Shown: positions 35,957-57,024 of the stretch, in pieces
How positions within the stretch are numbered: position 1 is the stretch's first letter
How the letters are laid out: every line of letters starts with the position of its first letter
DNA from: Podarcis cretensis
Taxonomy: Eukaryota
Direction: 5' to 3'
Assembly: GCA_951804945.1 (NCBI GenBank)
Contig: OX638159.1
Span: 38,130,001-38,194,000 of the forward strand
Length of the DNA stretch: 64,000 bases
Notes under the pieces: generated by a model
The model's input: only the letters and a program-made list of their open reading frames with translations
Database searches by the model: none
Told to the model about the DNA's origin: nothing
Position numbers and translations under genes: made by a program

Positions 35957-37660
35957 GATGACCAATGGAGACGTGCTATGTGAGTCCTTTAAGCAGACCA
36001 ATTCCTAAATGGATTTGCCTTGCACTTTTACAACGCGGCAACTGGACCCAGCTAGTTAGCAGTGCTGACACTCCTCCTCGGTCTGGGTTTCTGCCTTTTT
36101 CTGTAGTAGATCCCAGGTGTTTCCACGAAATCCGCGGGGCCCTATAATCCTTCTCAGCAGAATTTCAAACGCTAGAGTCTACAGGCATGTGGGAGCGTGG
36201 CCGGGGGAAGGGGGAAGAAACCCTTATGTAGAGAAGACCGGGAGTCTTACTAGGGAGTCGGCCCGAGGGGACTCTCCCCCATAGCCTCCCGGAGCCAGTC
36301 TCCTCCGCACCCCCTGCACCACGGGGTCCAGGGGCAGCTCCAGCTCCCTGCCAGGAGGCGGCGGACAGGAGGTAGAAGCAGCAGCACCAAGCCAACTCTC
36401 CTTCTGCAGGGAGGAGGGGGGGGGGTTAGAAACCCCACAGCAGCGCTTACGCCGTCGGCAGTTAATACAAATGCCCTGGAGCGGCGGCGAGAGCCCCGGG
36501 TCGCCGTCCGTCTCAGGTGCACAGCGGGACTGGGGGGCTTGCGGTGTGCGCAGCGCTCCGCGCCGCCCTTCCTTCTAACACCCCCGCCGGCAGCAGCAGC
36601 AGCAGCAGAATGGGGGGTGTCGCTTCATTTTCCCAAGCAGCAGCAGCGGCGGCGACGGCGGCAGCAGCAGCGGGAGGCGGCGGCGGAGGAAGAAGCCGTT
36701 TCGCCGGCGCTGACATCGGGCTCCGGTAAAACGGCGGCTGAGGCAGGGCACCGGCCGCGCATCCCTTGCAAGGGCGGGATGATGAAGACGTGGGGGGGGG
36801 GCTAAAGGGGAGATGTGGCGGGTCCCCCTTCAGGCACGCCTGTTTCTGCAGCGGGAGAGCATCTTCCTCCGGCTCGGAGCTGGCAGATCAATCATTCACA
36901 GCAGCAGCAGCAGCAGCAGCGAGGCGGGAGGAGAAAAAGGAGGAGGAGTGGCGGTGGTGGTAACCGCGTCGATAGCAGCAGAGCCCCCTCGCGCCCCTCT
37001 CTGCAGCAGCGGGGCCACAGCGCGGGCTGCTGCGGCGACAGCGGGAGGAGGAGGAGGAGGAGGAGGGCGCTTGCCCCTACAACACCTCAGGCACCGTTCC
37101 CCCGACGGGCGGGAAGGCAGGCAGGCAGGCAGGCAGTCAAGGCGCGGGGCTCTCCAACCGCAGGGTCAATCCGTGCCCGGCCGCTCAGGCTCTTCCCTGC
37201 CCGCAAAAGCCTCTCCGCGCCGCCCGCTCACATCCTCCCGCCTCACACCTCCTCCTCCTCCTCCTCTCCCCGCCCTCGCACACACCTCCGCCTCAGTCAG
37301 TTGCTCCCTCACTCTCTCCCTCTGCCGGTTTCCCGCGCAGGACAGGCTGGGGGCGTGAGGGGGGAGAGCCGGGAGGGCGGCGCTCAGAGCTGGAGGCGCC
37401 AGAGAAGAGACGGGCGCCCCGCTCTCCCTTCCCTCGGTCCCTCCCACCGGCGCCCGCAGCCTCCCAAACCAAAAAAATGCAATTAAAAAAAGCGGTGGAA
37501 GGGCTGCGGCTGCAGCGGCGTGTAAGCAGCCCGGGCTAGGCGCGGGGTCTGCCCCTCCACTCGGGCCCAGCTCTTTCCCTGCGGGGCTGCGCGGTGCAAT
37601 GTCTTCTCTCGGCTACTCCGCAACCACGAACCCCCCGCGCGGCAGCACCTGCTTATTCTG
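35957..37660 (-). other. HOMER1: HOMER1 exon 1 5'UTR (GC-rich, triplet repeats, several uORFs); TSS and absence of an intron are inferred
   Basis: Continuous CpG-rich sequence between the TATA-like box (37684-37691) and the start codon. Confidence 0.65.
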
Positions 37661-37920
37661 CCTCCATCCTCTACTCGGGGACCTTTAAATAGGGCACGTC
37701 ACCACGCTCCCCTACGCATCGCCGTCACACACTGCTCCCGGCGCTGACGTCACCGGGGTGCGGGGGATGATGTCAGGTTGGTCCACGCCGCCGGAAGCGC
37801 TTCTATAATAGGGAATGGAATAGGGGCGCGCGCGAGTGCAAAGAGAGGAATGGATACGCTGGGCTGCTGCGACCCACCTCCAGGATCTTGGCTTGCCCCT
37901 GGTGCGTCGTCTAACCACCC
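36020..37920. promoter_or_regulatory. CpG island over the HOMER1 promoter and exon 1
   Basis: Abrupt rise in GC and CpG density relative to the AT-rich flanks. Confidence 0.9.
37683..37812 (-). promoter_or_regulatory. HOMER1 proximal promoter: TATA-like box, CRE cluster, ETS + CArG-like (SRE-like) element
   Basis: TATTTAAA (minus, 37684-37691); half-CREs CGTCA at 37697-37701 and 37723-37727; full CRE TGACGTCA at 37745-37752; TGATGTCA at 37768-37775; CCGGAAG at 37791-37797; CTATAATAGG at 37803-37812. Confidence 0.8.
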
Positions 37921-40900
37921 ACCCCCCATAGTTACCCTCAAAAAAATTGCTTATCTAGAAAGAGAAGTTCTGACTCTTCGTTTTCCACCTAAAGACTGAA
38001 AACATGCCGTGAAAGTAGCAAATACGCCCTGAAGCAAGTCAAATCCAGACTCTGATGCTGGGAGTCAGCGTTGCAATTTGAATTGCAAACCAGGCAGGCA
38101 GCTAGCACAATGCTAAAAGGGTCACGTCCTCTTTGATGTTGTTTATATGTTGCTTTGGAGATTTTTAGTCAAAGAGCAACTCATAAATACTTAAAATAAA
38201 TAGAATATTATACTACCCATAGTCTAAGGATGAAGTGGGCAACGACTAGATTGCACTGTAAAATATTTTTAGTAGAATTTTACGCATCTTTGGGTTTTTT
38301 TGGTTTTGTGTTAAATATGACTTCTATGATTGCATATAATAAACATATTTTCAAATAAAAGATGGCTTGTATGATTACAGCTTAAATTAGAAAGCATGAT
38401 GGCAAAAAACATTTAAAAATTAGAAAGAAGCCAATGCTGTGAATTGCTAAAGAGAATCGATCTACCTCTTGGTGGAAACAGGAAGCTGTTTCTAACCAAG
38501 TCATCAACCAACAAATCAGTTCCTCTTGGGCAGAATTGTGAATGCTAACCAGCAGCTGCTTGCCAGGTGTCAGACAGAAATATTTCCCAGTTCCTATCTA
38601 GACACCAGGGGCAGAACCAGGGAACTGAATAGAAAACTACTAGAAACCCACTTTTCATGTATCAACAGACATATAACTTAGTTATCTGTTTGCATTAAAA
38701 GTTTTACTGATTTTATGTGTTTTTGTTAATAATTTTTTTAGCAGTTTGCAGAATTTAGCTGTGTTTTATCAATAATTTTATTATGTACACCACTTAGAGA
38801 CAGGTGGGATATAGCAGCTGTCTCAGGCAGTGGAAGCCCCCAAGGCAGCATTCCTGCAGGAGCCCCACCTGCACTGCCGCCACCTGTGGAGAAGCAAGCA
38901 CCAATTTTCTGCAAGATGTTTGTGAGATCTTGTGAGATCTCAGCAGAACTTGCTGCCACTGTACAACCTAGCTGAGGGATGCTTCAATGGGGGTTGCAGC
39001 ACTTCCCATCTTGCCTCAAGTGTCAAAACAGGACACAGTGACCCTGCCTAGAGAGACCTGTGACTGAGCAGCCTCAAAATCTTAGATATAATTGTTACTG
39101 CTGGGTCTGGAAGAATTTGTAAGCAGAATTAAAATAAGCTGCTAGTACTGTTCCACAAGAGTTCATGTAATACTATATATAGATAGGAAAACATTTCTAT
39201 ATTGGAATCCTGTAATGCTAACTGTTTGCGTACAAATATACGGCCAGGAATTTACACAGATGAATGAAAAGAAATTGAAACATAGTATTCCTTAACATGA
39301 TAGAAGAGTAAAACTGTAATTTTTAGTTAAAGGAAGGAAATAAATGCAATTCAGCTCTTCCTACCTGCATGTCAATGACCTGGAGCTTTTATTTCCTTTC
39401 AGCTTGTCATTCTTTAGCCTTTTTTCTTTTTATTCACTTGCTTGTGGTTCCTTTTTACCTCATTCATTCTTTGCTCATATTGAGACGTCTTTGGTGGTCT
39501 TTACACACATAGCCCAGTCGTTTACTCTTGTGATGTTCTTGTGCTGACTCTTCAAATCTCTCAACGGTCTCAACTGCCGTCCCCATGGAAACCTCTAGAA
39601 CCTTCTAATTCCAGAAGCAGAGTAAAGAAATAATAGTTTACAAAAGCACCTGGTTTCAGACTTGTTTAAGAACAGCACATTCCAAACGAGGCAGAGAATA
39701 TTATACATTTGCCTTGTAAAGGCCCTCAGCCAAAGTGGGAAGAAGTAGATTTCCCCACATCTGATCCATTAGTTAACTCAAATCTACCTCAAGTTCTGAT
39801 TAGCTAATAAAAACCAAAACGTCTCATGGGAAACATACATGCTGCTATTTATAGACTTGCTTTCGCTGCTCCTGTTTAAAGGAGTATAAAGGAAACAACA
39901 AAGAAAATTAAATGGGTAACAAGCTTTCTAATTTGAAAACAGTTTGAATTAACTACATTGTTTAATTGGATGCTTTAATTTCCATGCATCCATTCAAAGT
40001 TTCAACAAGTACATTGGCCTCACGTTGATACCTATCGCCTCAAGCAATAATAGTGAACTTCCCAGAGAGGTAATCTGATACTAGTAACACAAGTGCATGT
40101 AGAAACATGTATTAATTGGTATTTAATGTCAGTTACTTTGAAACTGTGAAGTATGTTGTTATCTCTATGGTTTATTGATATACTGATTTTCAGCTCAAAG
40201 GTGAGGCAGTCTCTGACTTAATACACATTAGGAAGTGTAATTATTGGTACAAAATTCAAATGGGTGAAGATAGGCTCTAGCTTTGGGTAATTTTTTATTT
40301 TAAAATGTTCAAATTTATGACAGGAGTATGGAATTCACTTGGAAATGTAAGGTACAGAAACAAGAGTTGACACAGTTGCCCTTTCTTCTTCAAGTATGGG
40401 TCAGAAAGAGCAAAACATTAACAGCATCAATATGAAAACTGTCATATCCCAAGAAAATGGAATACCAGAAAGCTTTTACCTAACACTATTTAGAGCCCTT
40501 AATAAAAGATATGGACTATTGGAGCATGAAAGAAAAATTAAGCTCTTGTTACAAGCTACTAATCAGTATGTAACTGGAAAGGGCACCTCCTGCAGTATAG
40601 GCCTCAAGCCTCAGGAAAATAAATGTTTGGAATCCATTTCCCAAAACTGTTGTGGAGATTAGTGAGTTTTCAGAATATAAATTCATTTTGACATATATTA
40701 CTATGCTTATTTTATTTTTTAAATGTCAAAGTCTTAATTAAAAAAAAATCTGTTTAATGTATATTTTCTCTGGAGTTTTAAATATATTTTACTTTCATAT
40801 GCACTTTAAATATTTTCTATTTTGTTCTTTTTTTGATATGGTCTATGACCAGTACAACAATATTCTGTTTTATTCTATATAAGTTTAATAAACTACACAG

Positions 40901-42260
40901 ACTTAGTTTATCTCCCATTCAGCCTCTACAGGTTAATCCCCCACCCCAAGTCAGCAAAAACTCCTACTCTTTACTGCTCTATAACTCCAATAGGATCTGT
41001 AGATTTTCCTTCCGGGTTGTCAGAATTTGTTTTTCTCTTTGAACAGGAGACCCTCATTACCACAGAACAGAAACTGCTTTTGAAAGTCCTCCGGTGATGC
41101 TAGGAGCCAAAGTTATGTGGATCTAGATGTCCAGTATTATTTTTTGTTTTAACATTTTTCCCACAAGTGTCTACTTGTTAGGGTTCTAATCTTGTTTTAA
41201 ATGCATTTGTCATATTTGTGTTTTTAATTATTTTATGTGTAAATCAACTTGTGACAGTGGTTTAGAAGGTGATTAATAAAGTGTAATAATATAAAATGTA
41301 CAATTAACATAAAATATCAAAAGCAAATCCTAAACACTCTCTAAAGGAAAAAAGTCAATAAAACTGTAGTACTACATCACCAGCAGGTTCCTCAAAGCCC
41401 TTGAAAGTGTCACAGATATTCAACTTCTCTGCCTTAAAAAGTAAAAGTGATAGACATATATGTACTTTGGTAGGGAGCTCATTTTATAGCTTTGAGGCAA
41501 CCATATCTTATCTTTCCCCATGACTGACTGTACAGTATTGACTCCACCTTGACAGCAAGATGAAGCTGACAGCAAAACCACCTTTTGCTTCCCTTCCTTA
41601 AAGGACACGTCCATATGGGCTATTTATTCACACGAAAATTGGCTGTCCCACACTTTCTACTGCAATTATCCCTTCACAAAGCTAGCTGCTAAAGGTCCCA
41701 TATGAAAAGCAACCGAAAATTGCATTGGAAAACGTAAGATAACCACTAGCTGCCAATGCCATTATCTACATTAAAAAAAAAAACTCCTGAGCACAGTCGT
41801 GGCAGAGGAACGGGGGTACGGAGGGAGCGGACCGCCCCCGGCACCACTGTTCCAGTAGGGTGCCCTTGTGGTGGCCGGGCGCCACGCCCCCCAGGGGCAC
41901 CAGCCACACCCCTGTCTGCTCTCTGCTCCTGGTAGTCCTGGTAGTGGAGCATGCAGCTTCACCACTGTCTGTTAGTAAGGAAGTTGTTAGTCCAAAAGTT
42001 GGGTGGTACATTTATTGTTCCTTATTTATTTATCAAAATGACATATACATATGTGTATAAGTATATTTAATCAGTATAAATATTTAATTAATAGTGTCTC
42101 AGAGACTTTTTATGCTGACAAGTCTATGCAGTTGTTTAAAAATTATATTCAGTAGCCATTTTAATTACTGCTTTGTATTGCTGGGAATGATTTTGTATGT
42201 TTTCATACACCTGTACATTGTCTTGATATTTTATGGTGGTGATATACAATTTATTTATTA

Positions 42261-42262
<2 letters not shown>

Positions 42263-42294
<32 letters not shown>
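42263..42294. repeat. (GT)16 microsatellite
   Basis: Perfect dinucleotide run. Confidence 0.95.
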
Positions 42295-42297
<3 letters not shown>

Positions 42298-43409
42298 TGC
42301 TTGGTTAGTTTATTAGCATCTTTCCATGCTCTTCCCTAAAGTAGCCTTGAAGCAGTTAATATATGTAGAATATGGACATTACATACAAAGGTTTGCCTTG
42401 GTCAAAATTTAGTAAGCATACTACAGGATCTAGTGGGTATTTGACATGATTTATTGGCCAGAACATTTGCCTGGTTCTGGGCATTTAAACAGTAACCCCT
42501 GGTTACTAAAGCATTCCTGATGATGGAACAAAAAATTATACATAGTGCTTGAAATAAAGCGCAGAACTAGAATTTAAACACTAATTTGTAACATAATTTG
42601 TAACCTGAGATGTAGCACAAAAGAACCTGTGGAGGCCTAGCTGCTGTGTTACAGATGTTCCGTTCTCTCTCTCTCTTTAAAGTAACTACCTAGTCCATTA
42701 AGTTCCAGAAATATTAAACAGTAAACCCTCCAGTTCCCAATAATTCAGACAACTGACTGCAACACCCTTTGGATGACTGATAAACACTTAAAAACGTTTT
42801 TTGAAAAGCTTGATTGCATTTTAAAAAATGTTATTCAAGTATACAAAAACCAAAACACCTTTTAAAAAACCTTTGACTATTTTTTTAAAAAAATTAAATT
42901 AAATTAAATTAAGTAAATTAATTATATAAATTTAATTTATATCCCACCCATCTGGCTGGGTTTCCCCAGCCACTCTGGGCTGATTACAACATATAAAACA
43001 CAACAAAACATCAAACACTAAAAAACAAGATATCCTATACAAGCAACAAACCAACCGATACATCAATAAAAACCAATAACAATAATAACAACAATAAACA
43101 ATTTACAGTTATACCCAAATTAACCACCAACCCCAACTAAACATTTAACCAACACCAATCTGACAAAAATGAAATGGAGGATCCAAAATTAGAACAGTTT
43201 AAAACATTTTAGCCAGTTACCCCTACCCAAGAGTTGTTCCAACAACGTCCCTCCAGCCTCCCAGGAGCCTTTTAGCTGATCAGGGTGAATCTGGGCCCCA
43301 CCCCCTAGGCCAGGTGGAAATGGGTCTTCAGCAGGGAGCAGACTTTCTTCCAGCAGCAATCACAGGTTTGTGCTGCTTTGTGTCTTTACATCAAACTATA
43401 CACAACTAT

Positions 43410-43773
43410 GAGGGACGCAGGTGGCGCTGTGGGTTAAAGCCTCAGTGCCTAGGACTTGCCGATCGAAAGGTCGGCGGTTCGAATCCCTGCGGCGGGGTGC
43501 GCTCCCGCTGCTCGGTCCCAGCGCCTGCCAACCTAGCAGTTCGAAAGCACTTCCGGGTGCAAGTAGATAAATAGGGACCGCTTACCAACGGGAAGGTAAA
43601 CGGCGTTTCCGTATGCGGCTCTGGCTCGCCAGAGCAGCAATGTCACGCTGGCCATGTGACCCGGAAGTGTCTCCGGACAGCGCTGGCCCCTGGCCTCTTA
43701 AGTGAGATGGGCGCACAACCCCAGAGTCTGTCAAGACTAGCCCGTACGGGCAGGGGTACCTTTACCTTTACCT
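43410..43773 (+). mobile_element. Sauria SINE, full length, second subfamily
   Basis: GGGACGCAGGTGGCGCTGTGG, intact B box GGTTCGAATCC, (ACCTTT)n tail; 13-bp TSD TATACACAACTAT at 43397-43409 and 43774-43786. Confidence 0.93.
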
Positions 43774-44199
43774 TATACACAACTATTAAAATTATATGAT
43801 AAATCTTTTTTTGCAAAATTTTAATGCCCAATGGTAAAATCCTGTTAGCCAGAATGTAAATGATAAAGAAATTCTTGATCCAATGTGAGGAATAAGGGGA
43901 TGCAGGAACCAAATGCAGGAACCAAAGGGGAAGGAGTTCTTAAAGATGCATAGAGACTACTTATTGCCCAATGAGCTTTGAGTAGTGAAACTTTTATTCA
44001 AAGGTGATTCAGATGCAAGTCTTTCAAAAAGAATCCAGAATTGAATTTCGGATATGACTTTGCAAGCAAACTTTAAAAAATGTATCAGAATGTATGGACT
44101 ACCATAATGACATCCAATCTTAGAGTTACAGACGTTCATTGAAAGCCTTCACATGCATTAATTTATCAGCACAACCATTTCAAAACATAAAAGGCTGGT

Positions 44200-44985
44200 A
44201 TAGAATTGATTTTCTTCACATAATGTTGTGCTCTCGCGTCACTAGGAAACCCATAGATCGAAGCTGGAATGCATGGATGAACTACTTATGTAGGTGATGG
44301 GGTACACTGAAAATCTAAAATTGCCCTTGATATAATTCAAAAACTCTGAAACTCTGGTAGATTGTAGCAGAGGAATGTGGAGAAAATGTTGCTGTTGTTC
44401 ATTATTATCTAGCCATTGCAAAACCTGCATTGCAAATATAACTCACAGAAGCACCAGTTTATGACAATATTTTAATTTGCTTTGGCCCATTTCATATTCA
44501 AATGGCATACTTTAGTTCACTTGGTTATTTTTTAGAGCCTTCAGGAGCTGGGAATATATTGTGTGCATCAGGAGTCTTGGCACCAGGCTCCACTAATGGA
44601 TTCATGTCTGGAAAACACTTCAAGCGCTACAAAAGAATCCACATATTGTTAGCAATAGCCATGCAAATGTTGCATTTTTGAAGTTTTGTACATTGTAATG
44701 GTCTCATTTCAATAGAATTTATGAACCTTCCAAAACTGATTGCTGAGCAGCCTAATCAACACACATTATGTGAAATGTTTATAAAACAACACTCCAGAGT
44801 TCTAATGGATAAGTATTATGTATTCAAGAAATTGCAATCATCATCATGGATCAACTTCAAAATACCAGATGACACATATTGACATGGCTGGACTTTTACC
44901 GATTATTTGATAGATCTTGCCGTACAAACGATGTTGACCTTTTCATCTTTGCTCTTGGCAAAATTCATTCAATATTTGTTGCTCC
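44200..44985 (+). mobile_element. Decayed transposase fragment, Academ-like DNA transposon
   Basis: Frame 44364-44681 reads VAEECGENVAVVHYYLAIAKPALQI*LTEAPVYDNILICFGPFHIQMAYFSSLGYFLEPSGAGNILCASGVLAPGSTNGFMSGKHFKRYKRIHILLAIAMQMLHF*; further on, FDRSCRTNDVDLFIFALGKIHSIF. Motifs recalled from invertebrate Academ-type transposases. Confidence 0.65.
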
Positions 44986-47678
44986 TTACCACCCACATTT
45001 ATTTTGCTGTTTGATTGACTTAACTGTAGAAGACACTGCAAACAAGGTTGCAGCATCACAACAGGGAGGCATTCATGCATTTATTCACATGTGCTGCAAA
45101 GAGGAGGATGGTGATATGCATTTCAGTCAACATGCCTTTTAGTTGCCCATTATAAATGGCAAGGCTATTCAATGTGCCATGGTGCTTGCGAAGAGTAGTG
45201 GTGTGTGAACATCTCCATCATCAGCATCCAGCATGCCTTGAAACCCATTTGGGCAATTTGACCATTTCCTTCGAGTGCTTTTAAAACCACAGTGTTTTGT
45301 TCAAGCATTTTAAAGGAAGATTTGAAATAAATATATGGTGCTTCAGCTCCCTTCCCTGCATGAGTGTCTGCAAGGGAACAGGAGAAACAACTGTTCTGGA
45401 TGAGCCACAATCCTTGGATTTCCAATTAAAGAAGAAAAAAAGAACAAGTCTCAATTTGTTGTAGGCTCCAAGTTTCAAGGGGAAAGATGTAGGTACAATT
45501 CTGCCTATTTATTTTGTAAGAAACTAGTCTACTCCTGCCTTTCAGTGTTTGTAGCTGATGATTCACATTTAGGAATCAGAGCTAGCTAATTAGACAGAAA
45601 TAAAGTTAGAGTGCTACATCTATTGTCTGGAGAAGGAACTTGGTTTATTTTTAAGCCATTTGCTGCTCTTCTGGGTTGGAGAAGTGACTGCTTTCACATA
45701 GTAAACAAGTCAGAAATCTAGCATTTTTGTGATTAGGCAGCAGTGTGTCTACCAGAAAGCAAAAGATAGCAGTAAAGACAAAGAGTTCATGATCTTTCTA
45801 ACTCAGATCTTATTTCATACAAAAAAATGTGACACAGCCCATTTGATTACACTGTAAATGGCAATGGATACAAAGCCTGTCATTATATTGCAAGTGGCAG
45901 AGTTGTGGCTAAAAAAGCATTTGATACACCAGCCCTTTCCTGCTGTAGAAGCAGTAACAAATTCTACGATAATTCATGATTTTAGTAGATTTGATTTTGC
46001 CAGAGTTAAAATAACCTGTGTGAGGCATTTCAGGGCTTTCCCTTTACAGCATGCAGAGAGGAAAGGCAATCTGGCCACGTGAGATCTCCTACTGCATTAC
46101 CAGCTCACTTTGTTTCCTCACTGTGCACTGAGAATGAACAGCTACAGCTGGTGTTGGAGGAAGAGAAACCTGTGCAATCCAGGTTCCTGATGGGGGGGGG
46201 GATTTCAAGGGCACTTGCAAATCACCTGCTTATTGAGCATGCATCCGGATTTGTTTGAGGGGAGGTTAGATGACGTTGTGACAAAGCAAGTGTTATCCCA
46301 CACTTTCCAGTGCATTTTCCATCCCTTTCCTTATCACAAAAGTCCAGTCTTTTGGGGAAGCGAGTTTGTGTCACAAGAATTCCCAATTAACTATAACTGC
46401 ACGTCCTGAATTCGCCAATATGTGATTGACTCCCACTCAAAAATAGCAACAGTAAAAGCTTTAATGCCCAAATATGACTATTCAGGTGTTCAAAGAACAT
46501 AAAGTGCAGAGTAGTTTAGCAGTTAATCTTTCTTCCCAGGGAACTCTGAGAATTTTAGCTCTGTGAGGGGAATAGCAGTCTCCTAACAGCTCTCAACACC
46601 CATAACAACACTTCTCAAGATTCTTTGCAGGAAGCCAAGACTGTTTAAAGTCCTAGGATGCTGCTTTAAATGTACAGTGCAGGTAGGGCTATACATTCTT
46701 AATGTAAGTAATTTAAAACCCTGATTACACAGGGTTTTAAATCCCACAGAAAGCCCATGTGTACAAGGCAAGTTCCCTGCTTCAGACCTTCCAGAACTTA
46801 GTTTCCATCCCCCCCCAAATGAAGCCACTTTGGCAAGCACTTAGCAGCAGTCCTCTTAAACTTTGCAGCTGCTTCCTTCTCCTTTCTAGTTTTAGGCTCT
46901 GTTTGGAATCATCTTCTGTGTTGTGGGTCATGCTGACGTATCATTTGGACTAATAGTGTAAGAAGTTGCAGTGGACTCCACACCACCCCTGCTGCAGCAA
47001 GTGATAAATGTTTCGATGCTTCAAAATTTGTAACAATAATTATTTTATAAAGAAGAGAGATGTAATGGCCTCAGGATCAGACTCTCCAAGTTCAGGAAAT
47101 AGTGCCATGGATTTCTAGATGATGGGGCAGAAGAGGGAACTATGACTCCAACTAAGTCTCCTTTTCCAGAAGCCTGGAGGTTGCACTTTCATTGTCCAAC
47201 AAAGTCTGAGGAACGTGCCTAGGCCATCTCTTAACAATGCCCCTGGTGCAGAGAGCGAATGTCTGATCTAAAAGACTCTCCAGTGTGCCTGATACAAGTT
47301 TAACAATAGGATTGTTATGCACACCCCAATCTCTGAATGGTGTGATTTCAAGGGGGGGGGGTGCACCATGTTCCTGGTTATACATGGTTTTATTTACGCA
47401 TATAAACTGACTGAGCATAATGTGGATGGGTTCACAGCATTAGCACTCCAGCAGATCTTGCTCCCCTACTGGATTTTGGGTGGGAGGTTCCAAAACCATA
47501 GCTCTGGACCAAGGTCATAGTCAAGTGGGGATTTGAACCCTGGTCTCCCAGGTCCTATCCCAACACTCTAACCACTATTCCACACTGAGCATTTTTGTAC
47601 ATTCACCAATTATATCATCTCCAGATGACATCTCCAGATTGTCTCCCACTGCAAGAGTTACCCAATGAGTTTTGACTA

Positions 47679-47900
47679 CAGTGGTAACTCGGATTACATA
47701 CACTTCAGGTTACATACGCTTCAGGTTACAGACTCTGCTAACTTAGAAATTAAGAATTTTGCTTCAGGATGAGAACAAAAATTGTGCGGCGGTGGCAGTG
47801 GGAGGCCCCATTAGCTAAAGTGGTGCTTCAGGTTAAGAACAGTTTCAGGTTAAGAACGGACCTTTGGAACGAATTAAGTACTTAACCTGAGGTACCACTA
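47679..47900 (-). mobile_element. Tc1/mariner MITE, family A, copy 3
   Basis: Reverse complement of 8294-8519; TA flanks. Confidence 0.88.
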
Positions 47901-48493
47901 TATATGTGATTTTGGCTTTAGGCGTGATCCCCAGAATGTAAACCCCTGTGTAAGTTGACTTTTGAGTAGACATACATAGTAGTGCAGTTAGATTTTCTTT
48001 TGCCAAAGGCACAGCTGTACTCTCTAGGTGCACAACATACAAATTGTGATGAAAATAATACAGAATTGGAATGGTGTTTGTAAGAATCTCAGACTGTGGG
48101 TGTATTCCTGTAGTTCAAGAACTATAGCTACGGTAATCTCTGGTCCCAGCTATGCTTTTGTTAACTATGTTTTAAGGGGTGAAAACCTGCCGTAGACTTG
48201 GTGTTTTCTGCTAGGTTCACGGAAGGACATATCTCAGTTTCATTTTTCATTAATTCTAAGCTTTTAGATAGTTCTGTTCCCCAGTGATCTGAAAACCTTA
48301 TTTTAGAAAATAGTAGAATCAAGGAAAAACATTGTATAAGCTGAATTCATTATAATGCACACTTTTTATATAAAGTGGTTTAGTATACTCTTTGTAGGCA
48401 TTTACCTCACGTGAAAGTTTGCATGTTTGTCCAAATATCAAATGATGGTTGTGTTTCAGTTCTTGATTTTTTACAGAAAGTGTAAATTATGTA

Positions 48494-48661
48494 TCGTATT
48501 TTTCCATGTATAAGACTTGGGTTTTTTACCAAAAAAATTGGTTTAAAATTGGGGCTCGTCTTATACAGGGGTAGTGCTAAGGGGTGTTTACTTAATTTGG
48601 AGTCCCCCCAAATAGGGGGGTGTCTTATACATGGCAGCGTCTTATACACGGAAAAATACAG
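48494..48661. mobile_element. Tc2/pogo-like MITE
   Basis: TA|TCGTATTTTTCCATGTATAAGAC ... GTCTTATACACGGAAAAATACAG|TA. Confidence 0.82.
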
Positions 48662-51389
48662 TATGTTCCCTTTAAAATGCAAACTGAATTTAATTTCTCC
48701 TAGGGAATAATGGCAAGTCATGGCTCTGGAGGCACTATGGGAGAACTGAATTATAATGGTAGACACCAACCAAAGCCACTGCTGCTGCAGCACCAAGATA
48801 CATGCTGCACTCAGGTGGCCATAACATACATTATGGGATTGTGACGTATTAGGTGGCGAAGCTTCCTGAAAGCTTCGGCTTTCAGCAACTGCCCATTAAT
48901 ATTACAACTGCCTGACGGTACTGACCCCTGGTTCCAGGCCTGGCTTTAATAAATGGTTGTTACTCTAGGAATAACAGTGGATCTATTACTTTTTATTCTA
49001 CCCATTTCTGATATTCATGCATGGGTGCCAATGTTTATGTAGCCAAAATGGCACCATCTGCACAAAAGAGGGTGGTATCAAGAGGCTCAGTGAAGAGGCT
49101 CAGGATTTTCAGAAATGCCACAAATATTTAGGGGAGAACCCTTCCCTCACACAACCTACAAAGGGTGCTCACGCCACAGAATGCTGAGCAAGTTTTGGGT
49201 GGAAGATGGCATAGAGTATGGCTGTCAGGCACACTAAACAAGAACACTCCACACTGCTACATTTTGTTGCAGCTTCCACTTCTGGCTACTGCTTGCAATA
49301 GCTATAACACCTGCTGTGCTGTCTTAACTAAAGCTTCTAACTCAAGATACAGAGTTTGTGTCCATATAAGGATAAAAATTACAAATCAGTCATTAAAGCT
49401 TTTTGGCATAAGGCAGATTTAAAAAAAAACACAAGACTGGTAATAATGAACAAAGACCTACAGAACCATGTGTCAAGGAAATTTAAATATAATAGTATGA
49501 ACAGCATGTTTGGAGTAATTAAACATTGGTTAATGGAATTAATAATTCAGAGCTCTTATATAAAGCTGATCAATAAAGGGGGTAATTAAACCCATAGCAT
49601 ATTGCATATATTAAGAGTTCCTGTTATGGTTGCCATAGAAACCTTAACTTTGAGTTCTCTTCCATTTGCAGGTTTAAATTTTTAGCCTCAGTGTTGCATT
49701 AACATACCATTTTTTTGCATTGAATAAATTTGCCAATAGAGGATTATTAAGGAGCTTGACGTTTCTAAAGTGTCTAACCCTGTAGTTAATCTGCACATCA
49801 ACATTTTAAATCACAAAAGTATTAATACTCAGCTCACAGAACATTCAAGATGTTCTGCCTTTGATGTGCTTATGCAAAGTTGGTCACCATTTTAAGGCTT
49901 CTGTTGCACCAGCTTCCTGAAAAAGCTTCCCCCTTTCCAACTACATGTGTGTTAGGAAAAGGTGCAAACTTAAAATCACTAGAGCTAAAGGTAGGTGGGG
50001 TGGGTAGGTGAATAAATAATCATTGACTACAAAAAACACACCCTGCAATACAAGAAATCCATGCATATTTTATTAGCCCCATCCTCCAGAGCAGGGTTGC
50101 CAACCTGGTGCCCTCCAGATGTTGTCACACTTCAGCTCCCATCAGCATCAGCCAGCAGGGGAACACATTTGCTATTCCTAATCTAAACGAATATCGTGGA
50201 CCAAAATCCGAGTGTTCTTTATGACTGAGGAATCCTCAGCAATATCAATGGGTTTGGGGAAATAGGATTTTACTGAAAGGAGGAGGACCTTGAAACTAGG
50301 AGTTCCTTGGCCTTGCCATACCTTCTAGCACTGATCCAAGAAGGGCTAAATTGAACCTTAGATAACTGACTCTGCCACTAATGAACCCCTGACAATTATC
50401 AAGGAGGTGGAGCTAGGACCCCTGCTCAGTTCCAGTAGGGATACCATGTCTCTGAGGGTCAGCAGGCGAATCAACCAGATGTGCCTGAGACAGCATGGTA
50501 GAGGCTGTGCAGAGAAGTGCCCAGGCACACTGTCTATTTAAGGAAAACTTTCAGGAGATCCAGTCTGCTGGGTGTAAGGCCAGTCTTTTGCAGAGGTTTC
50601 AGTGTGATCCAGTTCTTTGAAGACTTGCAGCATCAACCTTTAAATGAACGCTTAGGGAAACTGAAGACAACAGTAAAGTAATGCTAGTCTGATCTTTAGT
50701 CTGATCTTATATTGTGTGTGATATGCACAGAAGGATACTGAAAGTCGGATTCCAATTTTCGCCTATTAATTTTTTAGGCTTTAAAATAAAGTTAGGGTGT
50801 CATTTAGAAGCTTTGTTATTTTCTTGTCGGGCTCTGTTATTGCCCTGTTTCTTAAAAGTCCATTTTAGAATTGCGTTTTTGGTACTATTAAAGGCCTATA
50901 TTGCCTTTTCAGAGGGATGTTTTTTCACTGGAAAAGAAAATTTCCTTTACTGCTAGCTAAGCTGATCTTTTGGCTTTCTTCCCAGAATGAACTTCAAAGT
51001 ACTTCATATGGGTATTATATTTTGAAAACTACAATTTTCTCTGTGGAAACTGAACGAAATTAAACCCAATTAATGTAATTTATGTCTGTGCTGCCAGAAT
51101 AGAGTATTCAATACGTTTGGTTTACTAGGTCATATTGGTCCCTCTGATATATCATATAAATTAAATTATATGCAAAAATATCAAAAATGTCTTGTTGCAA
51201 ACTGGCAACAAGAAAGAAGGGTCATGTTCGGGCTATGCACATTTACTTGGGAGTAAGCCCCATCAAAACTTAATGCAGTGCCATTTGAATGTAAGTGCAG
51301 CCCTGCTGGATCAGAACAAAGGTCCATCTCAGCCAGGATTCTCTTACCAACAGCAGCTAGCCAGGTGGTTCCCAGAAGCCAACATTTAG

Positions 51390-52400
51390 GGTATAAAGGT
51401 AATAGCCTTCCTCCATTCCTCACCATGAGCCACTAACATTGAGCTACAGTTACAGTTTCTCTGAACCTGGAGATTCCATTTAGTCATCATGGCTAAGAGT
51501 AGTCAATTGACTGATCCTCCATGAATTTGTCTAATCCCAAAGCCATGTAAGTCAGTGACCCTCACCATATCTTAGGGCACTGAACTACGCATTGTGTGAA
51601 TACCGTATTTTTTGCTCTATAAGACTCACTTTTTCCCTCCTAAAAAGTAAGGGGAAATGTGTGTGCGTCTTATGGAGCGAATGCAGGCTGCGCAGCTATC
51701 CCAGAAGCCAGAACAGCAAGAGGGATTGCTGCTTTCGCTGTGCAGCGATCCCTCTTGCTGTTCTGGCTTCTGAGATTCAGAATATTTTTTTTCTTGTTTT
51801 CCTCCTCCAAAAACCAGGTGCGTCTTGTGGTCTGGTGCGTCTTATAGAGCGAAAAATACGGTAAGTTATTTTCTTTCGTCTGTCCTTAACTGATATCAAG
51901 TCAATTATATGTCCCCAAGTTCTATCACAGAAAAAAACACCTCCATCTACTTCCCCAACACCATGCATAATTTTAAAAAACTGTTATCATATCTCCCCCA
52001 CCTTAATGGTCCCTTTTCTGAGCTAAAGGTGACTACATAAGGTGCTCCAACCCCTTATTTTCATTTCTCACTGCAATATCTCTTTTTGAAATGGAATGAC
52101 TAGAACTGTACACACTATTCCACACCAGTAATGTGATACTGCTTATTTTACTCCATCCCTTTTCTAATAAATACTGTGTGACTACTGCTGTGCACTGAGT
52201 TGACCATTTCATTGAACTGTCCACTGTGATCCCAAGATAGCTTCCTATTTAGTTGACAGCCAGTTCAGATTTTATCACTGTGAAGTTGGGATTCTTTTTT
52301 GCCCCAATATGCATTGCATTGTATTTATTTATGCTGAACACTTGATTTGGCTGCTGTCCCAGAAGGAAGGCTGAATCTTCAACCATTTTGTTGTTGCTTT
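51390..52400 (-). mobile_element. Degraded CR1 LINE 3' region (interrupted by a MITE)
   Basis: CCTCCATGAATTTGTCTAATCC..AAAGCCAT and downstream CR1 ORF2-like remnants; a plus-strand CR1 relic with the same motif lies at ~55780-56150. Boundaries approximate. Confidence 0.6.
51603..51861. mobile_element. Tc2/pogo-like MITE
   Basis: TA|CCGTATTTTTTGCTCTATAAGAC ... GTCTTATAGAGCGAAAAATACGG|TA. Confidence 0.9.
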
Positions 52401-53859
52401 TAGCAGAAAGGATAAAAAGGACCTTGTTATTGCCAGTAGTAGGTAATAAGTAGGTATTGTGTACCATAGTCAACTGGCAACAGCTACGTACTTATTACCT
52501 TTTATATCCTGACTTGGCCAGGCCTTTGTAATAAATATTCAAGGCAGCTAGCAAAACAACTCCCCCCAAAAAACCCCCCTGAAAGCAATACAGAATAAAA
52601 ACAGTGAAGATATTAGTAAAACTACAGAGCAATCTACAACTAAAAGACAATAGCATCATAAAACTCTCTGCAAAGGCATTATTCAAGGAAGAAATATCAG
52701 GAAAAAATCCCTATAGAACAAATATGTGCAGCCAATCATATACAGAAATTAGGGGAATATACCACAATCTCTCACAAGACTGTTAGTCAAAAATGCAAAC
52801 ATAAACTGGAATTTTAAGGAACACATTATAAGTGCTATGGATTTTGCTGTTCTGTGAATTTCTGTGAATAGGACTGTTGCTGTGTTTTTGCTTTATGATA
52901 CTAGATATCTTGGACTTGACAAAGGAGTGTGAATAGCCCAGAACAGGTGATGTATACTCATGGAAAGATGTGTCCCTATGGAAGGAAGCTCAGGTTAGAA
53001 GATAACTTCTTGATACATGACCACTGGGATATTCAGAAAAGGGATTAAGGGGCATACACTTCCCAACTCCATATAAGGATGGTGTAATCTAGTTCTGTGT
53101 CACTGTGCAAAGGCACAAGAGATAGACTGCAGTTTTGGTAGTTAAGAGAGTTTTGGGGGCTTGGCAAGCAAACAGTACCAGGGAGTGAGGGAGGGACACC
53201 CTTTAGAGACTAAAGACTACCTGCTTCTCCTCACCTGTAATTGATGTCTATGCACATTATACGGCCGATTTATTCATCTATCTTATTTCACCGTTACATT
53301 TTAAGTGTCCAAAGCAGTGTACATCATCAGTCGCAATATAAAACGTTTGAAGAAGTCAGAAGCTAGCAAACAAGAAGCATAGCTGGTAAAATACACTTCC
53401 TGAGAAGTTATCGGCTGTTATGGCCCTTTAGTTGAGGAGAAACCCTAATAATTCAGAGGGACTTACTTCGAAGTAAGTATGTATTGGGCTGGCTCAAGGC
53501 AGTCGTGCTCAAAGCAGCCCCCCTGACATTAGTTTTAATTCCATTGCTTTCAGTGGGTCTACTCTACACTTGTATTTTAGTGTTCTGTTGGAAGCCGCCC
53601 AGAGTGGCTGGGGAAACCCAGCCAGATGGGCGGGGTATAAATAAATTGTTGTTGTTGTTATTACTATTACTTGTCTGGATTCGCCTTCGTGTTTCTTAAC
53701 CAAGCTGAGGAATTTTAGCATGCAAAATGGGTGAATCTTCCACGAGGCTAACTCTCCCGTTGCCTTTTAAGGAGAAATCCTCATACACATAACTGCGTAA
53801 CATGTTCTTTTCAATACCATGCCTTGCCATTTAATTCCGAAATAAGGTTTCACTCTCCA

Positions 53860-54800
53860 GGAAGCACCCCGGATCACGTCGAGTTCTCAACCCTCGCCGG
53901 GCGCTAAGCGATACCAAGCCAACTCCAGACGCTTAGTCGCGCTTAAACCGGGCTGCGGCGCATGCGCAGAGTGGGACGGGAGCCACTACTATGGAGAGGA
54001 ACGCCGCGGAGCGGAGAGAGCGACGACGGAAGGGCGCTCGCGACGTCTTCGAACACCTTCTCTCCCCCTCTTCTGGTTCTGGATCCGGGGCGAGAACGAG
54101 GCCTCAGCCATAGAGATGGCCAGGTGCAAGCGGTTCCGGGTTACTTCCGGAAGATCCCGCCTCTCCCTTCCCTTTCTCTCTAGAGAGGAGGAAGCGAAGA
54201 AAACAGAGCCGAGTCCGCTGGCTTCGGAGCGCGCTGGGCCTTGCCCAGTCAGCTGCCTCTCCCGCACCGGAGTAAGTTGAAGGAACGAATATCATTCGGG
54301 GGGCGGAACGGTTTCTACGTGGCCGTTCGCACATTTCCCCCTCAAGATTCTCGCTTGGAAGCGAGCGGGGCGCCAGACCCGGCGGGTGTGTGAGGGAAGG
54401 GAGGGGTCGTTTCTCAGATACTTAGGTGCTTGGGGGGGGGGGAGCGGCTGGGCCTGAGGTACTTATTCATGGGGGGTGGGGGTGTTAGAAACTCTGGGGA
54501 GAGGCAGGGTGGTAGACTTGAGGGAGACTCCCGGCGGTCGCGAGTGCCTGGCGGGGATTCCGGTGGGGCCCGAAGGTACGGATTGCCGATAAGGAACAAC
54601 AGCCCTTGTGACGTCAGTGGTGTTCGGGGGGGGGGTTTGCTGCTTTCTCTGCAGCTTAGCTGCCACCCGAAAGTTGCCTCGCTCGCGCCGGCGTATGCCC
54701 GCGTGGACTGGTGTGTGCTGCCAAATCCTTCGAACGGAGCTGTCTGCAACACAGGCAGAAAGAGCTTTTTCCCAAGGCCGCGCTGGATGGTTGCTCGGTT
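53860..54800. promoter_or_regulatory. CpG-island promoter of TENT2
   Basis: CpG-dense; NRF1 motif GCGCATGCGC at 53958-53967; palindromic ETS/GABP motif CTTCCGGAAG at 54144-54153; CRE TGACGTCA at 54609-54616. Confidence 0.88.
54150..54271 (+). other. TENT2: TENT2 non-coding exon 1 (start approximate)
   Basis: Strong donor CCGGA|GTAAGT at 54271/54272, just downstream of the ETS sites inside the CpG island. Confidence 0.6.
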
Positions 54801-57024
54801 TCATTAAAAAATAAAATAGAATGTGAATGTTTCATTCTGTATCTGGTGGGTCACTTACGACAGGCAAGGTTCTACCCGAGAGCAAGCTCGTTCACGATTA
54901 CTGTGCTGGGGAAATGCTTTATCCGTGGGGCATGGTCTGTGCACAGTGGCGGGGATGTTTTAAGGTCACCAAAGTGGCTGTCAGTAGAATTTGGTAACTG
55001 GCACACAAAAAACAGTGATGACTGTTTAAAGAGAGAGGCTGTTTAAAAAGATTGGCCTTCTTGGAAAAAATGTGTAGCAAGCTATCTTGGAAGGGAACAC
55101 ACAGATGCTTATATGTATGCTGGTACTAGTAGCCTAAAACGAGGACACCGTTAAGGTAGGCATATGGAAATTGGTGAAATCAGTGGGGCATGTTTATTGT
55201 TTAATGTGGTTATGTATGGAAATGACAGAGGATCGTAGAAGAACAGCTTTGCTGGATCAGAACAAACAGGTAGCATCATGTTTCCAACCGCAGTGGTTAG
55301 CCAGATGCATGTAGGAATCCCTGTAGGGCAGAGTCATTTAGGAAATGTAGAAATTTTTCCTTTTCATCATGATCCAAACATGTATTTATCAGTGTGTGTT
55401 AGAGTAATTGAAGTTGCCCATTACTATGCTTTCTTCACCAGATACCTTCTTTACTTCATTCCTTATCTCCAGTTCACTCTTGAGTGCTTTGAACAGGGAG
55501 ATGATAATTTGTGTCCTGTATTAAATTGCTTTTGGGCCCTGATTTAAACATATAGGAGAACAAGCCTTGTTGAAGATGAGTCAAAATGGGAGGTTACCTG
55601 TAGACAGTAACTCCTACACCAGCAGTCTTTTGGGGTTTGAGTAGGGGTGATCTAACCCAGTTCATCTTGAAAGGCTCCTGAATAAATGTAGGAATAAATG
55701 GGAACTTCTCACAGTGGAGGCTAAAAAATCCATACTAGAACTGGTAATGTTGAACTTTTTCATAAGTGATCTGGAGTAATGGATGAGCAGTTGACTAGGT
55801 TTGCAGACAACACCAGGAACACGAGGAAATTGCTAAGAAGTCTAATGAGGTGAATGAGCAACAAAATAGCAAACAACGTTTAGTTATGAATAAATTGGTG
55901 CTTATTAGCGCAAAAAATCTTAACCATGTTCACGCACATACTGACTTTCTCTGAACTGCTAGCAGCTGGTCACCTGGTGAAATTGAGTGGCAGTAGATTG
56001 AGGATGAGCAAAATAACATTTTACTTCCCATCACACATACTTGTATGCGAAAAATTGCCACAAGTTTAGATGGCTTTAAAGGGGGATTAAACAGATTCAT
56101 GAAGGACAACTCTATTAATGGTTCTTAACCATAATGGTGAAATGGGGCCTGCTGTCTTGCGGGCTCTGCTTATGCAAATATAGACAGATTGGCAAGTGGA
56201 AAAGTGGGTCTTAGACTCAGATCTGTAGAGTTAGAAGGGGGCAGCGGGATTGTCTAGTTAAGCCTCCTGCAGTGCAGGAATCTTTTGCCCAATGTGGGGC
56301 ATGTATCCAAGATTTGTGATAGTAACAGTCTCGTGCAACTGGATTCGGCATATTCTTTTATTTATAAAATTTGGAGGCTTCATTGGTTTAATTTTAATTT
56401 TTAAAGTTTTAATTTTTGAAGGGAAAAACCCCACTTGGATTGTTGTTTGACGCATTATTTTATTGGCATATTGTTTTATTAAGTTGGGAGATGTCATTAG
56501 AATCTATAGAAGTTTTAAATTCTGAAGGAAAAAGAATGAATTTACTCTTATAGAACAGTTGGCTCCTACTCCTTGTTCAAAAGTGGGATCTTGTTTATAG
56601 AGGAAAACATATAAATGTTTCTAAAATTATGTTCATGATTGATTAGTCTTTATTTGCTTGTAGAGTAGTTGTGGGTGCTGTTTATGAACATTGGGCATTT
56701 CAAGGTAACGTATCTGGTCTGCTTAGGCCTTAACCCCTACCCCATTTTAAAGATAATGAATTGGAAATATTAAGAGTGCCTATCTTGCTTTCCCAATGCA
56801 TCTGGAAAATAATAAATACTAATTTTGATGTCTCTGTGCTTGTGAATATTTAAGGAAAATTACGTTGTAACAACACGTTATTGCCAAAAAACACTCGGAA
56901 GTTATCAGCTTGTAGTAATGGCTAATATATGTAAACCTTATGACTTACTTTAGTTGCCTGATTTCAGTTTTTTTTTTTAAATAATAGGTAGAAGAATACA
57001 TGTTTACTTTCAGCATAGAAGAGC

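Follow-up and report, generated by a model that had tools for sequence, protein, structure and literature searches.

A likely AcademX-type transposase fossil between HOMER1 and TENT2 in a lizard genome, grouping outside the named insects

What kind of transposase left the broken reading frame that lies between two genes of a lizard, and how did it come to be in the lizard lineage? An earlier note on this DNA had read it as the relic of an Academ invasion, plausibly by horizontal transfer from insect prey or parasites. As described below, the decayed large transposase with an AcademX-like architecture stands, and the insect donor largely falls. The remark that Academ is rarely reported holds for reptiles: a 2016 comparison describes the superfamily as absent from lizards (PMC4746887), and our search of the open-access literature found no report of Academ families in squamates, an amniote-age fossil of human and turtle being the only record. 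As far as that literature shows, an AcademX-type fossil is new for squamates.

The fossil lies on the plus strand at 44088/44208-45128 of the window (the whole 64,000-nucleotide stretch of DNA analysed), in the intergenic region between HOMER1 and TENT2, and 44088-44207 is its weakly aligned edge. The relic extends beyond the span first proposed, 44200..44985 (it covers 44088 or 44208 to 45128), and holds two extra stops; all of the collinear blocks quoted in the earlier note are present on the plus strand at their places. The parts are as follows.

44088..45128, plus strand: decayed ORF fragment of a likely AcademX-type transposase (profile matches 44088-44831, 44891-44995, and 45011-45088)
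44294-44326, plus strand: VMGYTENLKLP, block read in the sequence
44326-44340, plus strand: LDIIQ, block read in the sequence
44343-44357, plus strand: TLK.W, block read in the sequence
44364-44438, plus strand: VAEEC..PALQI, block read in the sequence
44460-44525, plus strand: YDNIL..SSLG, block read in the sequence
44568-44642, plus strand: SGVLA..KRIH, block read in the sequence
44845-44865, plus strand: HGSTSKY, block read in the sequence
44912-44956, plus strand: RSCRTND..FAL, block read in the sequence
44340..44830, plus strand: frameshift-free, least decayed core, with stops at 44358, 44439, and 44679
44406..44408, plus strand: TAT (Tyr) replacing the Asp of YDLAIAK, likely the second catalytic Asp
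45014..45034, plus strand: IDLTVED with an invariant D and E; likely catalytic Glu at 45029-45031

Judged from the alignments, the homology of the fossil to large transposases is not due to chance. A profile built from 28 near-full-length intact relatives and run over the 64-kb window in six frames scores 207, 27, and 9 bits at 44088-45088 and at most 3 bits elsewhere, and a protein database search with the fossil as the query retrieves 1010 representatives at E up to 0.001. The best match bears out the homology that had been proposed: 44361-44840, with X at the stops, is 57% identical to a 1510-aa protein (E 6e-36; 3 matches among 229 candidates), and intact relatives of the P0024 type are ~1500 aa long. 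In a frameshift-aware alignment, 44208-45128 matches P0024 over 304 codons at 46% identity, and the frame is broken, much as the earlier note had read it, by four stops (TAG 44291, TAG 44358, TAA 44439, and TGA 44679), six frameshifts, and a 38-codon deletion near 45001. The intact relatives carry Q and R at 44439 and 44679, so that the suggested single C>T changes fit, and they have D where the fossil has TAT at 44406, again as had been expected.

The fossil spans a part of the DDE domain that starts after the first catalytic Asp and ends just beyond the catalytic Glu. In the intact relative P0021, the residue corresponding to the TAT codon, D216, stands in every or almost every one of 123 aligned rows (1.00, rounded) and closes a strand of the RNase H-like domain in the predicted model; this conservation and fold point to a catalytic role. 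D460, E464, and N468 are invariant columns across 126 aligned relatives. In the window copy D216 has become Tyr and E464 is retained, but neither the N-terminus with the first Asp nor the nuclease is left; in organism E, a related species, a 17-nt deletion at 45028 hits the likely catalytic Glu codon. About a fifth of the ORF is left, without element ends, and the fossil is likely a dead relic, unable to give an active enzyme.

Its superfamily was sought through the intact relatives. Pfam gives 0 families for the fossil at E up to 1 and only a sub-threshold DUF6589 for the relatives, and according to an excerpt of PMC5751038 Pfam is without an Academ model. A PDB sequence search with P0003 gave 0 matches, and the ESM Atlas returned clusters, unlabelled or of DUF6589, in which a handful of labelled members come from Mollusca, Arthropoda, Cnidaria, or Mucoromycota, uninformative as to range or donor. 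A single-sequence fold of P0022 (pLDDT 36) was discarded; P0021, which is 49% identical to the fossil over 214 columns, was folded with a 60-row alignment (pLDDT 87, pTM 0.80). Its residues 17-505 match the Drosophila P transposase (Z 11.0, rmsd 4.9, 303 aligned), with further matches of the N-terminal part to Hermes (Z 7.8), ISCth4 (6.8), and RAG1 (5.6), and its residues 674-1058 match Exo1 (Z 13.4, rmsd 3.9, 260 aligned) as well as XRN1, FEN1, XPG (Z 10.4), and GEN1. On this model Foldseek found the nuclease domain only, and the DDE domain came from a wide structural search; the conserved acidic residues of the relatives are D45/D48, D216 (YDLAIAK), and D460/E464. In other words, the intact relatives are predicted to be fusions of a P-element/hAT-like DDE domain with an XPG/FEN1-like nuclease.

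The nuclease of AcademX is XPG-like, and the fusion of a DDE transposase with a nuclease in the relatives is the AcademX layout. The fossil is thus likely an AcademX-type transposase, a name based on architecture and not on comparison with named Academ references. The DDE test was done on the P0021 model, and the fossil is homologous to the part that holds the second D and the E; the nuclease domain is gone from the window copy, and one sibling copy (C4:85.36 Mb) keeps a weak piece of it (15 bits; 34% over 78 aa). Academ lineages are of nuclease and helicase types (PMC10045372, excerpt). AcademH, with its RecQ-like helicase, was considered and rejected: no helicase motifs (DExH, Walker A) were found in 10/10 full-length relatives checked, and their C-terminal domain folds as a 5' nuclease. 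AcademX, by its original description, carries a C-terminal cysteine-rich zinc finger; by a crude count, at least six Cys occur in the last 140 aa of 6/56 relatives over 1400 aa, most having 1-5, and this region is absent from the fossil.

The ends of the element are missing in all five copies known from this genome. No inverted pair flanks the fossil within 38-52 kb, the sibling copies have no common non-coding ends and share only widespread SINE/LINE repeats, and two contigs of intact relatives stop short of both ends. The target-site duplication of Academ is 3-4 bp (PMC10045372, excerpt). Directly upstream of the fossil lies a young SINE (43411-43773, with as much as 97% identity between it and other copies), and upstream there is also the 3' end of a LINE-like repeat (42915-43356, 80-86%, thousands of candidates); both were rejected as parts of the element, being unrelated high-copy repeats. 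We take the SINE to be of the Sauria type; together with genome size and contig numbers up to C19, it marks the host as a likely lizard, probably a lacertid. An old unclassified repeat at 45426-45936, with 62-75% identity to 29 or more further loci, was rejected as an Academ end, since it is absent beside the four siblings and has no match to the ends of intact relatives. At 48496-48659 and 51601-51863 there are two short MITE-like elements whose terminal inverted repeats, of 21-29 nt, are related.

The two flanking genes were recognised from single exons. On the minus strand, a WH1-domain exon within 10895-11248 matches Homer1 (E 3e-30), and on the plus strand, an exon within 59775-59972 matches the poly(A) polymerase GLD2 (E 1e-12). 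Two CpG islands lie between these exons.

36000..37800, minus strand: CpG island, likely HOMER1 promoter (CpG o/e 0.72-0.78; ~6.3 kb from the fossil)
53800..55000, plus strand: CpG island, likely TENT2/GLD2 promoter (CpG o/e 0.61-0.86; ~8.7 kb from the fossil)

Within 36000-55000 the likely HOMER1 and TENT2 promoters thus stand head to head, ~16 kb apart, and the HOMER1 island has a TGACGTCA (CRE-like) site near 37746.

A DNA search of the 1.51-Gb genome (51 contigs) found four other loci of the family, on C6, C4 (85.36 Mb), C14, and C10, with 70-74% BLAST identity (5/5 candidates scored; the counts are lower bounds); with the C6 sibling as the query, a search crowded by a repeat gave no copies beyond the window one. 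Identity between the window copy and its siblings is flat over codon positions 1/2/3 (e.g., 0.65/0.68/0.71), which indicates that the five copies are one family that diverged neutrally; among intact elements, and among the remaining Academ fossils of the lizard, position 2 is far above position 3 (0.76 vs 0.45). In a star tree of ~240 ungapped columns and three alignments, the branch of the window copy is 0.10-0.11 (5-95% 0.06-0.15) vs 0.24-0.43 for the siblings, and we estimate its decay at 0.10-0.15 substitutions per site; an earlier core-weighted figure was 0.07-0.08 (51/62 kept), and the full-length figure is 65/93 kept. The changes found in the window copy only are spread evenly across the codon positions (18/110, 21/104, and 20/103), its four stops are consistent with a decay of 0.10-0.15 (3.0-3.6 expected), and none of the 32 listed substitutions of organism E (of 38) falls on a stop.

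How old is the family? Excerpts of two papers give a wall-lizard rate of 1.98e-9 per site per year (PMC8760935) and a slower rate of 0.77e-9, applied to another lizard (PMC12961865). At the first rate the window copy is about 50-75 My old and the siblings about 125-175 My; at the second, 130-195 My and 325-455 My. The locus is present in organisms B, C, and D besides the likely source (three DNA studies; share of words 0.61-0.82), and it therefore predates their split. The family wave thus looks old and was probably Mesozoic, with ages that scale with the rate.

The same genome carries other Academ-like fossils. Another AcademX-type fossil, better preserved and from a different family, lies on C4:107166200-107170590, minus strand (L017:6203-10000 and L018:1-590); it holds the C-terminal part of the DDE domain and the whole nuclease domain (354 bits), is split by a 1.9-kb insertion, shows 65-67% identity to the P0031/P0037/P0039 clade over 106 aa, and is a single copy by DNA search. 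It is probably a separate, younger entry. Older Academ-like fragments, at C11 18.55 Mb (L019:4912-5630) and C4 94.02 Mb (L020:4307-5615), fall outside the clade of the window copy on long branches, and small pieces occur on C2 (two) and C5 (L034, L035, and L036). Including the window family, the genome holds at least four Academ-like lineages, and its Academ fossils fall in different subclades, each closer to non-lizard elements than to one another.

Taken together, the account that we find best, and think fairly probable, is of a broken, likely AcademX transposase from a non-insect lineage, now inactive and with at least five decayed copies, that likely came long ago by horizontal transfer out of some host not sampled here. 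For the entry itself we prefer the horizontal reading, with somewhat better than even confidence, because separate subclades occur in one genome, because DNA transposons undergo neutral evolution inside genomes (excerpt of PMC7070016), because the per-copy transfer rate of Academ is the highest among the superfamilies named in the part of PMC12400950 at hand, and because the once-active protein, by back-calculation, was ~57-71% identical to a living relative, as close as many clade members are to each other. The closest relative in the data is 52% identical to the fossil, with no near donor among the sequences compared.

The strongest rival, which we regard as a plausible but distinctly less likely history, is a vertical relic: an Academ family inherited from tetrapod or amniote ancestors that became extinct in stem squamates or earlier. 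Such descent is feasible because an amniote-age Academ fossil, common to human and turtle, has been published (PMC9004415, section 9 and Table 3, in part) and because the clock is loose, the sibling decay of 0.25-0.35 corresponding to 325-455 My at the slow rate. Excerpts also argue for vertical carriage of many TE types by ancient vertebrates (PMC9004415) and place Academ transcripts in a salamander (PMC9998948) and Academ copies in teleosts (PMC4746887); a fish protein falls within the same broad clade as the fossil, and at least three further Academ-like lineages are found in the same genome. Against this, the decay of the window copy is only 0.10-0.15, and it can still be aligned over 304 codons; at 1.98e-9 (PMC8760935, in part) the siblings date to 126-177 My, later than the Teiidae-Lacertidae split at 188 Ma (PMC12961865, in part), and the placement of the lizard's Academ fossils in different subclades nearer non-lizard elements fits repeated entry.

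A separate question, compatible with either origin, is whether selection has kept the 490-nt core, either for a regulatory role or within an antisense lncRNA, near the HOMER1 promoter; non-coding constraint on the core is possible, and we consider such an exaptation doubtful. It would account for the short branch of the window copy (0.10-0.11 vs 0.24-0.43 for the siblings) and for the retention of 36/44 clade-conserved residues in the core vs 77/131 in the four siblings (Fisher p 0.006) and 29/49 in its own flanks (p 0.02). A three-way comparison gives a branch of 0.115 for the core vs 0.25-0.26, a sibling-like value, for its own 3' flank, in a flank test of 110 columns with core borders drawn after data inspection. 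On the other side, an adjacent unrelated old repeat, taken as a control, also has its shortest branch in the window copy (0.15 vs 0.20-0.33), so that much of the core effect is explained by slow evolution of the region or by a bias of the search; the recent divergence from organism E is equal in the core (10/491) and the rest (22/875; 32 of 38 substitutions listed), and the flat codon pattern rules out constraint on a coding sequence. Four sequencing runs compared with 43790-47600 bear on transcription, and the features concerned are these.

43985..45367, minus strand: putative terminal exon of a spliced non-coding RNA (1376-nt contig, run X15)
45368..45390, minus strand: splice-acceptor-like site, pyrimidine tract plus CAG (score 11.0, exactly at the contig end)
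43993..43998, minus strand: AATAAA, polyadenylation-signal-like hexamer, 8 nt before the other end of the contig

Run X15, from organism E and presumably RNA, has one 1376-nt contig that lies wholly on 43985-45367 with 38 substitutions, the unique flanks being empty, and run X17 (organism F) has three short contigs inside the same interval at a depth of 2-2.6. With one end at the acceptor and the other near the polyadenylation hexamer, the X15 contig would suit as the final exon of a spliced transcript running antisense to the transposase; the longest ATG-started ORF on the minus strand is 62 aa. In our own simple model, an acceptor score of 11.0 is reached at 8 of 128,000 window positions, and a HOMER1 exon acceptor scores 10.2; AATAAA occurs about once per 960 nt per strand, including a plus-strand copy at 45326. 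The candidate acceptor is ~40-60 nt from the edge of the old repeat at 45426-45936. One contig of one study, given without strand or end information, suggests that 43985-45367 is the last exon of an antisense lncRNA upstream of HOMER1; more tentatively still, a spliced non-coding RNA may run from the TENT2 side toward the HOMER1 promoter with its final exon antisense over the fossil. Set against exaptation are the raw RNA runs of organism D, with 0 reads on the fossil in 2/2 runs (12% and 6% of the runs read), and Rfam, with 0 families in 38-54 kb; the best 12 of 94 literature matches hold nothing relevant on a divergent lncRNA of HOMER1-PAPD4. A joint reading goes further, and we judge it improbable: lacertids would have been invaded repeatedly by AcademX from aquatic-animal lineages, and one copy would have been co-opted, its 490-nt core evolving at ~40% of the sibling rate as the antisense last exon of a spliced, regulatory lncRNA that starts at the TENT2 promoter and heads for the promoter of the immediate-early gene HOMER1.

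Did the element come from insects? The earlier note had treated a motif series with YDLAIAK, FGxFH, and RTND as an arthropod signature, which the relatives do not support. YDLAIAK occurs in 72/122 of them, including the cnidarian Hydractinia and a Thiodiazotropha clam-symbiont MAG contig, and FGxFH and RTND are found in 27/28 and 20/28, respectively, of the proteins closest to the best match vs 0/14 named insect proteins for each, counts that are partly circular because the 28-protein set was ranked by likeness to the fossil's best match. The superfamily does occur in insects (of 120 matches listed, 23 are named, and 19 of these are insect proteins), and most near relatives of the fossil bear no organism label. 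Over the fossil's 214 profile columns, P0024 is 52% identical, a MAG protein 49.5%, and 19 named insects 33-40%; the top clade reaches 48-52% and 140-155 bits vs 91-114 bits for the named insects, and among the 150 matches listed in a fossil-query search, a lobster protein ranks 13 and the first recognised insect 48. A Coilia fish protein, at 35% over 119 columns common with the fossil, is no better than the insects and joins the clade via P0003.

Four trees, unrooted or midpoint-rooted except for the 126-row FastTree, place the fossil outside the insect clade of Academ as far as the sequences sampled go, and the nearest ~30 proteins are without a taxon label and may include insects or vertebrates. 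In the FastTree of 126 rows, the fossil falls in a 39-row clade (support 96) with the Coilia and MAG proteins, and all 19 insect rows form part of a separate 65-row clade (support 100); in a 301-row tree, its clade has 123 members, including Homarus, and 0 of 20 insect rows. A quick IQ-TREE of 45 hand-picked rows did not reject an insect grouping (AU p 0.055), whereas a careful one (34 hand-picked rows, 214 fossil columns) gave supports of 100/96 and 99/98 and an AU p of 0.0023. For the sampled insect clade, the donor named in the earlier note is therefore largely refuted, and transfer from insect prey or parasites in general seems to us very unlikely.

Among 30 clusters of nearest relatives, three bear a name, one of them just a JGI "hypothetical" label and two an organism (Thiodiazotropha and Coilia/Merluccius), and the "aquatic" character of the fossil's clade rests on four named records. 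Thiodiazotropha is presumably linked to lucinid clams, and the Thiodiazotropha/Sedimenticola MAG contigs appear to derive from a clam or another animal host. Intact or near-intact eukaryote-type Academ-like ORFs also occur on short MAG contigs of Sedimenticola, Thiodiazotropha, and Desulfocapsa (L037 and L038; P0008, P0139-P0148, and P0268); annotated as bacterial, they are likely host-animal DNA binned into MAGs. With P0024 as the query, 0/11 candidates from JGI metagenomes gave related loci, and 2/275 candidates from GTDB genomes did so, both ending before the element ends.

A domesticated protein-coding gene, present or long past, is contradicted and extremely improbable: the 490-nt stretch without a frameshift and P0322, a 163-aa predicted database protein that is 96% identical, speak for it, but that stretch has three stops, the catalytic Asp is lost, the codon-position pattern is flat with no third-position excess, the likely transcript is antisense, and P0322 (predicted from an orthologue of the fossil, likely in vertebrate DNA) has W at both window TGA places, the relatives having R at the first, and hence is most likely a TGA=W gene-call artefact.

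From the predicted domains, the intact element would have moved by cut-and-paste, its nuclease trimming DNA ends. If the preferred reading of an old horizontal entry is right, the family would have entered the lizard lineage from an unsampled host and been active roughly 50-180 million years ago at the wall-lizard rate, and later both ends would have been deleted and point decay would have set in. The fossil gives no support to a prey-to-predator story. A squamate gap is filled by the four or more Academ-like lineages of this one lizard genome; datable by orthology across squamates, they offer a clean test of vertical against horizontal descent for a rare superfamily. The possible antisense lncRNA exon by HOMER1 would be a candidate for transposon exonisation, exonised fossils being common.

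How does the fossil compare with known systems? In its own clade stand P0024, P0209, P0217, P0022, and P0028 (from ENA, Logan, and JGI), with VHYDLAIAKPA, FGxFH, and RTND-type motifs in common, and the named members are Homarus americanus, Coilia grayii, and the Thiodiazotropha/Sedimenticola MAG contigs; the intact elements of the clade are at most 52% identical to the fossil over 214 columns, and none is the donor. AcademX, reportedly a lineage of the Academ superfamily set out by Kapitonov and Jurka in 2010 and by Kojima in 2020, resembles the relatives in its single long ORF of ~1500 aa with a DDE domain and a nuclease (predicted XPG/FEN1 fold) and without helicase motifs, whereas the fossil has only about a fifth of the ORF and no ends, and the finger is seen, by the crude count, in only 6/56 relatives. 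The P element, hAT (Hermes), IS256/MULE, and RAG1/Transib share the DDE core of RNase H-like fold, in which a large helical insertion sits, but at 5-9% sequence identity, and none has a fused XPG-like nuclease. The Academ-1_NV-like fossil on human chr4 near NDST4, found also in turtle, is likewise an Academ protein fossil in an amniote; it measures 152 bp (E 0.0067), dates from the amniote ancestor, and sits at a different locus (PMC9004415, Table 3, in part); in comparison, the window fossil is ~1 kb long, far less decayed, multi-copy, and probably younger.
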